A stretch of 20,104 nt of DNA from Candidatus Thorarchaeota archaeon (GTDB lineage: Archaea; Asgardarchaeota; Thorarchaeia; Thorarchaeales; Thorarchaeaceae), in NCBI GenBank assembly GCA_038893995.1, contig JAWAQK010000037.1, positions 1 to 20,104 of the forward strand. Direction: 5' to 3'. A model generated the notes under the pieces. It saw only the letters and a program-made list of their open reading frames with translations, was not told the DNA's origin and did no database searches. Shown here in pieces: positions 2,755 to 6,629 of the stretch (position 1 is the first letter of the stretch; each line of letters opens with the position of its first letter). The position numbers and the translations under genes were made by a program.

Positions 2755-2895
2755 CGACGCTGGGCAACTGTCTTTTCAGCATTGTCTGTATCTCTATATC
2801 CCGAGTCACTGTCTGGAGTAGTCTTGACGGAGTCATTGACAGATTGCGCTGTCTGGAAAGGCCGTGCTTGTCTTGCCTATTCGAACGACAGCAAC

Positions 2896-2904
2896 GTTAA
2901 TATT
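2896..2904 (+). promoter_or_regulatory. TATA-box-like element of the tRNA-Asn gene
   Basis: GTTAATATT lies about 27-35 nt upstream of the tRNA 5' end in GC-balanced DNA. The same GTTAATAT octamer occurs at 16328-16335. Confidence 0.6.
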
Positions 2905-2930
2905 ACAATCGTGGTGACTGATGCTTCAGT

Positions 2931-3123
2931 GCCGCCGTGGCTCAGTCGGTAGTGTGGTCAGACCAGTTTGGACCCACGCCGATAGCGACAGCCTGTTATC
3001 CCTCGGCGGAAGTCGAGAGCCAGACAGTTGTGGCACGTCACTCATCGTGACGAGCGGCCTATGGTCAGAGGTTCGAGAGACTTCTCTGTGCGGGAAGGTC
3101 CGAATGCCCTCTCGGCGGCGCCA
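2931..3123 (+). tRNA. tRNA-Asn(GUU) with four introns; exons 2931-2952, 2984-2998, 3026-3031, 3062-3077, 3107-3123
   Basis: Joined exons give 76 nt: GCCGCCGTGGCTCAGTCGGTAG-AGCGACAGCCTGTTA-AGTTGT-TGGTCAGAGGTTCGAG-CCCTCTCGGCGGCGCCA. Acceptor stem GCCGCCG/CGGCGGC, D-stem GCTC/GAGC, anticodon stem ACAGC/GTTGT with GTT at 2995-2997, T-stem AGAGG/CCTCT with loop TTCGAGC, discriminator G73, encoded CCA. Intron 3 boundaries are uncertain by 1-2 nt. Confidence 0.92.
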
Positions 3124-3143
3124 TCTTCTGAAATGATAATGTA

Positions 3144-4004
3144 TCAGAACAAGAACTGAAAGATGTTATCAAGGATCATCATTATGACAAATCCTGACAT
3201 AATCCCCCATGTTGCCTCTCTTTCGTGCCCCCCTGAATGGCTCTCGGGTATCATCTCGTCGCCAACGACAAATACCATTGCTCCCGCTGCAAAGGCAAGT
3301 CCGTAGGGCAGCACTGACACCGCAATTGTGACTATTGACACTCCAAGTGCTCCCCCCACTGGTTCTATTAGCCCCGTACCTAGTGCGAGTGCGGCCGCAT
3401 ACCTCTTCGAGTACCCCTCGCGTACCAGAGGGGCTGCTACTGCAAGTCCCTCTGGAATATTCTGCAACCCTATTGCCATGGCCACCGAGAACCCTGTCAC
3501 ATGACCCTCTGTCCCAAATGCAACACCAACCGCCAGTCCCTCTGGGAAGTTATGGATTGCTATTGCGATGACCAAGAGCCATACCCTTGCCATCTTGGAG
3601 CTGGGCCCCTCATGTCCCCTCAGAAGATGGTCGTGAGGCAAGTACTTGTCTGCAAGATGAACGAACAGCCCTCCCACCATGAAGCTTGTTCCCACGACAG
3701 ATAGTACCCCAGTCCAGTCCGTCAATGTTTCAATTGCAGGCATGAGTAGACTGAACGCCGATGCCGCAAGCATGACCCCTGCAGCGAAACCGAGCATTCT
3801 GTCGAGGCTTCTGTCAGTATATTCTCTTCCAAGGAGTACTGGAATTGTTCCAGCCCCTGTCGCGACTCCAGCGAGGAGACTGGCGGTCAATCCGAGCAAG
3901 ATGGCATCGTTCAACACAGAACACCACGGCGATGTCGTCTGCAATGGCCACTCCATATCTTCGGCCAAATGTAGTTGTCGTAACTGCCTTGAGATGAGTT
4001 CCAT
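3144..4004 (-). CDS. ZIP-family (GufA/ZupT-like) divalent metal transporter
   Basis: Motifs LGFAAGVML, IAIHNFPEGLAVGVAF, IGLQNIPEGLAVA, FAAGAMVFVV.DEMIPESH and a His-rich loop. The true start may be the GTG at 3917 or TTG at 3914. Confidence 0.92.
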   Translation of the reverse strand: MELISRQLRQLHLAEDMEWPLQTTSPWCSVLNDAILLGLTASLLAGVATGAGTIPVLLGREYTDRSLDRMLGFAAGVMLAASAFSLLMPAIETLTDWTGVLSVVGTSFMVGGLFVHLADKYLPHDHLLRGHEGPSSKMARVWLLVIAIAIHNFPEGLAVGVAFGTEGHVTGFSVAMAIGLQNIPEGLAVAAPLVREGYSKRYAAALALGTGLIEPVGGALGVSIVTIAVSVLPYGLAFAAGAMVFVVGDEMIPESHSGGHEREATWGIMSGFVIMMILDNIFQFLF

Positions 4005-4031: not shown

Positions 4032-4802
4032 TCAGACACAGACTCGGTCTGGTGGTCCTGCGTCGACATCGTGATCACGACAGAGCAAGTCCCGAATCTC
4101 ACGAATCACACCAGTCATCGTCGTGATCTCTCGTCCTGTCACGTATGCCCTCCCGATTATGTTCTTGAACACTCTCTTCGCGATTGGTTTTCTGTGAGCC
4201 GGAATGGGGATTCTGTCGATGACATCGGAGAAGAACATGCTCGCCTGATCCTTTTCACTCCTTGTTGCGGGTCTAGCACGTGGGACCTGCATGTTGCCGC
4301 ATATCCCATACCTACGATAGAGGTCATACAGCACCACCGAAACTGCATGGCTGAGATTCATGCTGGGGTACTCGGGTGAGACCGGTATCCTGAATGCAAG
4401 GTCGCACAGTGCAAGTTCCTCATTCGTAAGCCCGCTTCCCTCTCTGCCGAAAACTATTGCGATATCCCCGGAGACTGTTCCCATGTCCGGAATTCTATCC
4501 ATAGGGACGGGCGCCCTCACAACACTGTGCGTGCCGCCGGTTCTAGCGGTCGTGGCCCACGACGCAGGTACACCCTCTAGAGCTGAGTCGAGGCCTGAGA
4601 ATACCTCAGCCCGATCCAAAATCTCACCCGCATGCATTGCAAACTTCTGCGCCTCATCATTGTTCCTCAAGTCCCGCCCCACTATCCTGAGCCTCTTCAC
4701 CCCAAAGTTGGCCATCGCCCTTGCAACAAAGCCCACGTTTCCAGGTGTTTCTGGTTCAACAAGAACTACTATCAGCCTCTGCATCTGGCTCAACTTATCC
4801 AT
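4032..4802 (-). CDS. trmJ: TrmJ/LasT-family SPOUT tRNA 2'-O-methyltransferase (position 32)
   Basis: Motifs VLVEPETPGNVGFVARAMANFG, ATTAR, AIVFGREGSGLTNEEL and IPVSPEYPSMNLSHAV. Confidence 0.88.
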   Translation of the reverse strand: MDKLSQMQRLIVVLVEPETPGNVGFVARAMANFGVKRLRIVGRDLRNNDEAQKFAMHAGEILDRAEVFSGLDSALEGVPASWATTARTGGTHSVVRAPVPMDRIPDMGTVSGDIAIVFGREGSGLTNEELALCDLAFRIPVSPEYPSMNLSHAVSVVLYDLYRRYGICGNMQVPRARPATRSEKDQASMFFSDVIDRIPIPAHRKPIAKRVFKNIIGRAYVTGREITTMTGVIREIRDLLCRDHDVDAGPPDRVCV

Positions 4803-6035: not shown

Positions 6036-6629
6036 TCATTCTCCTCTCTTGGTCCTCTGGTCAAACCATCTGTTGATATCCAGGACGAATCTCTCTGGTG
6101 TTCTTCTGCCTGGCACCGGCCTCGCCGTGTGAAACTCTGTGGTTGATGGCGACTCTCCTCTGTAGACGAAGACGCCGTTCGGACGGCAGTCTGGCCATTC
6201 GCTTGCGCTGACTGATCGCGATGCGATGTAGATCGGACGATCCTGCCAGTTGCGATAGAGAGCCCCTTCCAGAATACGAGCGATAACGATCCCGTTGTCA
6301 GTTATGACAGTTTCTCCAACGCCGATGTCCTCCGAGCGTTTCATCGCCTTACTGATGAAGAATGATATTGATCTCTCGTCTGGCGAAACTCTCCTCAGCC
6401 TGTTCCCACCAAGAGTGATCACCACGGCATGCTCGTTGGCTTCGCTGATAACTAGTGAAACCTCGGTATCACGCCTGAGTCCTCCCGATAGGAATAGTCC
6501 GACATTCACTACACGACACAGAGTCACGATCTCGGGACCTAGCGCTCCAGATCTTATTGAATCGAGGCTTGGTCTGTGTCCACTGAATGGAATAACAAAA
6601 CTTCGCATGGTCATCGGCTGCTGTTCCAT
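6036..6629 (-). CDS. trmY: TrmY-like protein (tRNA pseudouridine-54 N1-methyltransferase family) with a divergent C-terminus
   Basis: TrmY signatures LCRVVNVGLFLSGGLRRDT and G..LRRVSPDERSISFFISKAM. Located immediately downstream of srp54. The C-terminal SAM-binding knot motifs are not recognisable. Confidence 0.7.
   Translation of the reverse strand: MEQQPMTMRSFVIPFSGHRPSLDSIRSGALGPEIVTLCRVVNVGLFLSGGLRRDTEVSLVISEANEHAVVITLGGNRLRRVSPDERSISFFISKAMKRSEDIGVGETVITDNGIVIARILEGALYRNWQDRPIYIASRSVSASEWPDCRPNGVFVYRGESPSTTEFHTARPVPGRRTPERFVLDINRWFDQRTKRGE

Follow-up and report, generated by a model that had tools for sequence, protein, structure and literature searches.

A tRNA-Asn(GUU) gene with four predicted BHB-type introns in a Candidatus Thorarchaeota archaeon

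Does a 193-nt segment of a Candidatus Thorarchaeota genome, of which only 76 nt can be read as tRNA, encode a functional tRNA-Asn, and how could a precursor with four inserts be converted into a mature tRNA? The segment lies at positions 2931-3123 (+) of the window, by which is meant the whole 20,104-nt stretch of contig JAWAQK010000037.1 (assembly GCA_038893995.1) that was analyzed. The DNA was derived from hot-spring metagenomes; a search for sequencing runs listed three DNA runs of one study and no RNA run. The SRP54 gene on the same contig is 71-77% identical to those of many Candidatus Thorarchaeota MAGs and 45-47% identical to that of Heimdallarchaeum. The results described below indicate that the locus is almost certainly a real and functional tRNA-Asn(GUU) gene.

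Gene anatomy, detection, and chance controls

The gene consists of five exons (22, 15, 6, 16, and 17 nt), which join to 76 nt, and four inserts (31, 27, 30, and 29 nt), which account for 117 of the 193 nt (61%). In tRNA numbering, the inserts are located at 22/23, 37/38, 43/44, and 59/60. The features of the locus are as follows, in window coordinates.

2889-2904 (+): promoter-like element CAGCAACG-TTAATATT, with a TATA-like box at 2897-2904 (-34 to -27 from the mature 5' end)
2931-2952 (+): exon 1, nt 1-22; acceptor 5' strand, U8, D-stem 5' strand, D-loop, and G22; identical or near-identical in relatives
2953-2983 (+): intron 1, 31 nt, at 22/23 (D arm); strict hBHBh' (H 4/4, h' 4 bp, h 2 bp)
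2984-2998 (+): exon 2, nt 23-37; D-stem 3' strand, G26, anticodon-stem 5' strand, loop with GUU, and A37
2999-3025 (+): intron 2, 27 nt, at the canonical 37/38 site; relaxed BHB (3/4 central pairs)
3026-3031 (+): exon 3, nt 38-43, just 6 nt; A38 and the anticodon-stem 3' strand
3032-3061 (+): intron 3, 30 nt, at 43/44; relaxed BHB with its central helix on nt 39-41
3062-3077 (+): exon 4, nt 44-59; variable loop UGGUC, T-stem 5' strand, and T-loop UUCGAG
3078-3106 (+): intron 4, 29 nt, at 59/60 (T-loop); strict hBHBh' (H 4/4, outer helix formed by the 5-bp T stem)
3107-3123 (+): exon 5, nt 60-76; C60, T-stem 3' strand, acceptor 3' strand, discriminator G73, and CCA

When the inserts were removed, ARAGORN called tRNA-Asn(gtt) over positions 1-76 of the spliced 76-mer. 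The cloverleaf has an acceptor stem of 7 bp, a D stem of 4 bp, and anticodon and T stems of 5 bp each, and its pairs and conserved tertiary positions (U8, A14, G18G19, G15:C48, U33, A37, G53:C61, U54U55C56, A58, and G73) are all intact. The CCA end is encoded in the gene, as is the case at about 26 of 29 listed tRNA 3' ends in the genome.

The splice motifs were evaluated with the standard BHB geometry, which places each cut between nt 2 and 3 of a 3-nt bulge. Strict motifs are present at introns 1 and 4. In intron 1, a complete central helix (CGGU/GCCG, 4/4) is flanked by the bulges AG^U and AU^A, a 4-bp inner stem (GUGG/CCAC), and a 2-bp outer helix; in intron 4, the central helix UUCG/CGAA (4/4) is accompanied by the bulges AG^A and UG^C, a 3-bp inner stem (GAC/GUC), and the T stem (5 bp) as the outer helix. 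Introns 2 and 3 have 3/4 central pairs each, a configuration placed in the "relaxed" class by the classifier of a recent preprint (bioRxiv, 10.64898/2026.10.13.758758). The central helix of intron 2 is CUG/CAG plus a U35-C mismatch, with the 5-bp anticodon stem as the outer helix, and its hairpin (CUCGGC-GGAA-GUCGAG) is not adjacent as an inner helix. The central pairs of intron 3 are G39-C, U40-G, and U41-G, without an outer helix; both 3-nt bulges are in register, and a 9-bp inner hairpin contains one A-A mismatch. At all four introns, the boundaries obtained by motif-free alignment to an intronless orthologue coincided with the BHB cut sites. The original prediction had described a tRNA-Asn(GUU) with four BHB-type introns at these positions; each of its coordinates and motifs was present in the sequence, and the ARAGORN call on the 76-mer and the agreement of boundaries with cut sites bear out its reading.

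The gene had also been expected to be missed by default tRNA finders, which was true of ARAGORN and Rfam RF00005. The unspliced gene was not found by ARAGORN, with or without the intron option, or by Rfam at gathering or permissive thresholds; at permissive E values, positions 2850-3200 yielded just chance-level snoRNA, CRISPR, and miRNA matches on the minus strand. A whole-genome RF00005 scan returned 27 tRNAs above the cutoff and 6 below it, and the tRNA-Asn gene was not among them. In comparison, the intronless orthologue L015 (genome G012), which matches the spliced product at 69/76 positions, scored 70.1 bits on RF00005 (cutoff, 29). ARAGORN with the intron option reported 26 tRNA genes in the genome, several of them with a misplaced intron or the wrong anticodon. 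Standard annotation would list this genome as having no tRNA-Asn.

A custom search was used in which the cloverleaf was read from left to right, skips were allowed at BHB-like motifs alone, and products were confirmed with ARAGORN. With strict filters applied to both strands of the 2.33-Mb genome, the tRNA-Asn locus was the sole four-intron solution, and all solutions of ≤200 nt were plausible tRNAs with a single anticodon. The same search of one reversed, non-complemented genome strand found no locus with ≤4 introns. The four-intron parse exceeds chance. Relaxed filters also produced solutions with spans of >235 nt, four or five "introns," and several anticodons per locus; these were rejected, and the strict run and solutions of ≤200 nt alone were retained.

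The relaxed finder also returned a second solution on the same span, in which a class II-like "tRNA-His(GUG)" with three introns would be the true parse and the Asn reading an artifact of a permissive search. The 66-nt "intron" of that parse absorbs the conserved exon 2 and part of exon 1, leaving an 86-nt product, and the parse was seen just with the relaxed filters, which yield obvious false positives elsewhere. Furthermore, a genuine tRNA-His(GUG) is located at C27:24656-24756, and the orthologues in related genomes conserve exactly the Asn exons. The chance that the locus is a three-intron tRNA-His is considered negligible.

Orthologues and genomic context

BLAST of the locus against 40 related genomes recovered the orthologous gene within the same family. 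The comparison comprised 19 family genomes, including this one (G000), and 20 loci, with 19 orthologues beside the gene described here. Relatives were parsed by motif-free alignment to the spliced sequence followed by a check for BHB motifs; a "fewest introns" rule gave wrong parses and was discarded. The number of tRNA-Asn introns per genome was as follows.

No introns: G012
Two introns: eight genomes
Three introns: six genomes
Four introns: G000, G006, G017, and G022

Each of the four intron sites of G000 is empty in some of the 19 orthologues. Intron 1 is absent, with exact boundaries, from 13 orthologues (6 carriers), and intron 3 is absent in the same manner from 11 (8 carriers). In relatives lacking intron 1 or 3, the exons abut precisely at the junctions predicted for G000. 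Intron 2 is present in 16/19 orthologues, 13 of which share the CCAGAC 3' end and the U35-C mismatch, and intron 4 is present in 12/19. The exons are 91-100% identical to those of G000 (69-76/76 positions; identical in G013 and 91-97% in the others), and the introns that are shared are 40-72% identical.

Covariation in the aligned sequences supports the BHB of intron 1 and the hairpin of intron 3. Over the six carriers of intron 1, pairing in the BHB register reaches 98% of cells, versus 27-53% in shifted registers, a result equaled in 0/500 shuffles, and D-loop nt 17 covaries with its intron 1 partner (C-G, U-A, and A-U). In the hairpin of intron 3, both sides have changed in six of nine pairs, and 97% of cells pair. 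The central pairs at nt 39-41 are kept in 8/8 carriers, with U-A/U-G variation, and the nt 38 pair is found in 2/8. Many Asn introns of the family are built alike: a single nucleotide precedes a 9-bp hairpin, whose 5-nt loop often contains UUCG or UUCC, and 4 nt of central helix and a final 2 nt follow.

These comparisons bear on whether intron 3 is an intron at all. The gene might instead contain three introns, with the 30-nt insert at 43/44 staying in the mature tRNA to lengthen its variable arm because the splice motif would be too weak to be cut: the three central pairs (one G-C and two U-G) are weak, the outer helix is missing, and the BHB costs ∼10 kcal/mol relative to the minimum free energy (MFE). 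However, tRNA-Asn is a class I tRNA, 11/19 orthologues are wholly without the insert, and the insert lies 5' of nt 44, outside the variable loop. Insert and loop together would amount to 35 nt, a length that no class II arm is known to reach. In addition, the central helix is complete (4 bp) in two carriers, all carriers preserve pairs 39-41, and both 3-nt bulges are in register. Retention of the insert is thus regarded as highly improbable, and the four-intron structure is the preferred reading.

The original prediction had left room for a separate, intact tRNA-Asn elsewhere in the genome. A short-word BLAST of the spliced sequence against the G000 assembly (91% complete, 82 contigs) revealed no second cluster of Asn exon matches. 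The four longer exons matched at this locus alone; the 6-nt exon 3 is too short for such a search. The locus is probably the sole tRNA-Asn gene of the genome, as judged in this 91%-complete assembly.

The incompleteness of the assembly, together with the seemingly heavy burden of four introns, could be taken to indicate that the locus is a decaying pseudogene and that a working tRNA-Asn resides on the ∼9% of the genome that is unassembled. Such decay is difficult to reconcile with exons that equal those of G013 and are 91-97% identical to those of other orthologues while the introns have diverged, with the intact cloverleaf pairs and tertiary positions, or with the conserved promoter box. Each relative searched has one such locus, which is usually intron-bearing too, and compensatory changes keep the BHB helices. 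A pseudogene is therefore very unlikely, and the locus is treated below as the working gene.

In a second sample of the hot-spring study, contigs matched the window in two pieces (positions 2799-2967 and 2986-3500) without differences; the identical sequence therefore takes in introns 2-4 entirely and intron 1 at its start. Among the contigs of this study, no intronless variant of the locus was found; the first sample may be the source of the assembly, and the third sample had no coverage of the locus.

The element CAGCAAyS-TTAATATT is found upstream of the gene in 20/20 family loci at about the same distance (-42 to -27), in flanks that are otherwise unrelated, and similar boxes precede other tRNA genes of G000. 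Judged by its conservation and position, it is probably a BRE/TATA promoter.

The neighborhood of the gene is ordinary housekeeping. Predicted RNA methyltransferases of the SpoU family and Methyltrn_RNA_2 (4032-4802 [-] and 6036-6629 [-]), a Drg-type GTPase, and SRP54 are encoded within 5 kb downstream. A weak C/D-box-like match to snoZ105 at 3144-3190 (-) (19.3 bits; E value, 0.76) has AUGAUGA and CUGA boxes and sits in the 3' end of a ZIP transporter open reading frame (3144-4004); it is probably due to chance.

Splicing enzymes and the predicted course of splicing

G000 encodes two EndA paralogues, and both were also detected in 15/15 family genomes searched. The alpha subunit (C15:14715-14969; 192-aa open reading frame) aligns end to end with Aeropyrum pernix alpha (E value, 7.6e-44). 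The catalytic Tyr, His, and Lys are present, and K44/R46 align without gaps with K47/R49 of the Crenarchaea-specific loop (CSL) of A. pernix alpha. This loop gives EndA activity on non-canonical sites and relaxed motifs (PMC3241643). In the beta subunit (C39:7349-7609; 215-aa open reading frame), Thr replaces the catalytic His, and similarity to solved beta subunits is distant (N. equitans NEQ261; E value, 6e-7; P. aerophilum PAE0789; E value, 0.003). The ligase RtcB is present as well.

The enzyme thus resembles the (alpha-beta)2 EndA of A. pernix (PMC3241643; PDB 3p1z and 3ajv) in the alpha triad, in the Lys/Arg of the loop, and in a second paralogue that lacks the catalytic His and would serve as the structural beta; here, it is known from sequence. 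The four introns had been thought to imply a broad-specificity endonuclease. At the sequence level, the two paralogues and the CSL residues lend support to that idea.

At its MFE (-85.0 kcal/mol), the 193-nt precursor folds with its acceptor, anticodon, and T stems formed and the inserts as hairpins; this fold also contains the intron 4 helix and its 3' bulge. Forcing the BHB of intron 1, 2, or 4 cost 2.4-6.3 kcal/mol, and the three together gave -72.5. Forcing the BHB of intron 3 raised the energy to ∼10 kcal/mol above the MFE because nt 39-41 must leave the anticodon stem, and all four together gave -61.5. From these modeled folds, we infer that introns 1, 2, and 4 could be presented on one cloverleaf-like fold and that intron 3 would need a separate conformer. 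Such a conformer would imply some order or independence of the cuts, which is a prediction of the model.

It is very probable that the precursor of this functional, and probably only, tRNA-Asn(GUU) gene is cut by the two-subunit EndA and joined by RtcB into a 76-nt tRNA. The transcription, cleavage, ligation, and splicing order that we infer would proceed as follows. Transcription from the conserved BRE/TATA-like promoter would yield a precursor of ∼200 nt, in which the acceptor, T, and anticodon stems would form and the four inserts would protrude as hairpins. An (alpha-beta)2-type EndA would recognize the BHB at each insert and cut both 3-nt bulges between their second and third nucleotides. 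A single cloverleaf-like fold would accommodate the motifs of introns 1, 2, and 4. Intron 3 borrows nt 39-41 of the anticodon stem, so that its cleavage would require an alternative conformer and probably a step of its own. RtcB would then ligate the five exons into a 76-nt class I tRNA.

Asn decoding in this organism appears to rest on a single transcript from which four introns must be accurately excised and in which four junctions must be ligated, which would make the precursor a demanding natural substrate for an archaeal splicing endonuclease. One of the splice motifs, that of intron 3, is predicted to form only upon melting of the anticodon stem.

Other interrupted tRNA genes and the mosaic of intron sites

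The multiple introns of tRNA-Asn are not isolated in this genome. An approximate census of the G000 tRNAs with ARAGORN, RF00005, and the custom finder recognized at least 40 tRNA genes, ∼12 without introns, ∼15 with one, ∼11 with two, at least one with three (the initiator, C5:46096-46264), and one with four (tRNA-Asn). The census corresponds to roughly 1.1 introns per tRNA gene; a few genes could not be parsed, and it is therefore incomplete. Of the 42 predicted tRNA introns, half are 29-31 nt long. Val-CAC and Leu-CAG genes were also among the tRNAs recovered by the custom finder.

Two neighboring, near-identical tRNA-Arg genes (C19:5510-5695 and C19:6080-6264; anticodons CCG and GCG) each have, when parsed by eye, a D-loop insert of ∼31 nt and an intron at 37/38. 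The BHB rules did not place the D-loop insert of these two genes, and its motif may be atypical.

BHB modules of the 30-nt hairpin plan numbered 343 on the real strands versus 337 on the reversed strands, with no genome-wide excess outside tRNAs. By this module-count criterion, there is therefore no sign of mRNA micro-introns in G000.

Reports on the Thermoproteales are said to give a maximum of three introns per tRNA gene. With that group as its benchmark, the original prediction had placed four introns at or beyond the known range. The benchmark is out of date; three further genomes of the family described here have a four-intron tRNA-Asn, four introns have been tabulated in Freyarchaeia, and up to five are given in an Asgard preprint. 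In three complete Atabeyarchaeia/Freyarchaeia genomes, 92-95% of tRNA genes are intron-bearing, many with multiple and non-canonical introns (Valentin-Alvarado et al. 2024, PMC11291895). In Supplementary Data 4 of that study, which provides columns for four introns, four are given for tRNA-Arg(TCT) and tRNA-Ile2(CAT) of Freyarchaeia; for Leu-GAG and Atabeyarchaeia-2 Trp-CCA, software called three and curation found four; and tRNA-Asn has two in all three complete genomes. The preprint describes up to five intervening sequences per tRNA gene in Freyrarchaeaceae, Jordiarchaeaceae, and Atabeyarchaeaceae, 0.91 introns per tRNA gene in other Asgard families, and two EndA paralogues in most Asgard genomes (bioRxiv, October 2026, 10.64898/2026.10.13.758758). 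In view of the four-intron reports from Freyarchaeia and Atabeyarchaeia and the five in the preprint, the claim of novelty fails.

The Thorarchaeote gene resembles these Asgard multi-intron tRNAs (PMC11291895; 10.64898/2026.10.13.758758) in phylum, in short BHB introns at canonical and non-canonical sites, in the regions that the sites occupy (D arm, 37/38, variable region, and T arm), in the two EndA paralogues, and in that standard annotators miss part of the introns. It differs in belonging to Thorarchaeia and in its isoacceptor, tRNA-Asn, and the intron load of G000 (∼1.1 per gene in the incomplete census) is lower than the 2.2 of the Asgard focal families in the published work. Thorarchaeia are not named as intron-rich in the main text of either source, and the word "Thor" is absent from the main text of the preprint. 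A four-intron tRNA in a further Asgard class, and in a different isoacceptor, is what is new here; the kind is already known. Heavily interrupted tRNA genes are thereby extended to Thorarchaeia.

Outside the Asgard archaea, reports on Thermoproteales (Sugahara et al. 2008, via PMC11291895; PMC4033280; PMC4090602) describe several non-canonical BHB introns per gene and an (alpha-beta)2 EndA with the Crenarchaea-specific loop, both as found here. In contrast, the present introns are from a different phylum and are unusually uniform (∼27-31 nt, with one hairpin plan). The highly disrupted nuclear tRNA genes of the red alga Cyanidioschyzon merolae (PMC3728597; PMC9602550) belong to a eukaryotic nucleus with a different endonuclease complex, and some of them are permuted, whereas the Thorarchaeote tRNA-Asn is collinear.

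The most interesting by-product of the comparison is a family-wide mosaic of six intron sites. Introns of the family tRNA-Asn recur at 22/23, 28/29, 37/38, 43/44, 50/51, and 59/60, and this orthologous series of zero to four introns is material for the study of intron gain, loss, and movement. On an SRP54 tree, intron content differed in five of six well-supported pairs of sister species. Gains and losses could not be polarized because the tree resolved just the sister pairs, without the deeper branching.

A 30-nt intron at 50/51, in the 5' strand of the T stem, is present in L016, L018, and L019 (genomes G003, G016, and G001, respectively). Its mean identity to the introns at 43/44 (L002-L007, L011, and L014) is 0.67 (maximum, 0.80), comparable to the 0.66 of the 43/44 introns among themselves, versus 0.49-0.57 for other pairs of sites. 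The two introns never occur in one genome, and each of the sister species G018 and G003 has a different one. Their likeness and lack of co-occurrence suggest, as a tentative reading of the alignments, that one intron of ∼30 nt may have shifted by 7 nt from 43/44 to 50/51.

Taken together, the six sites, the differences between sister species, and the putative 7-nt shift might mean that the Thorarchaeial tRNA-Asn is a fast-evolving intron mosaic, a generalization that we put forward with considerable doubt. If it is true, gain, loss, and sliding of archaeal tRNA introns would be documented in the series at the level of species, and the four-intron precursor would be a case of forced, ordered splicing because intron 3 could be presented only after the anticodon stem opens.

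One of the family loci has an additional feature. About 176 nt upstream of the tRNA-Asn gene in L020 (G022), a second promoter box precedes no more than nt 1-19 of tRNA-Asn, beyond which the sequence is unrelated; the 5' end of the gene seems to have been duplicated in tandem and truncated.
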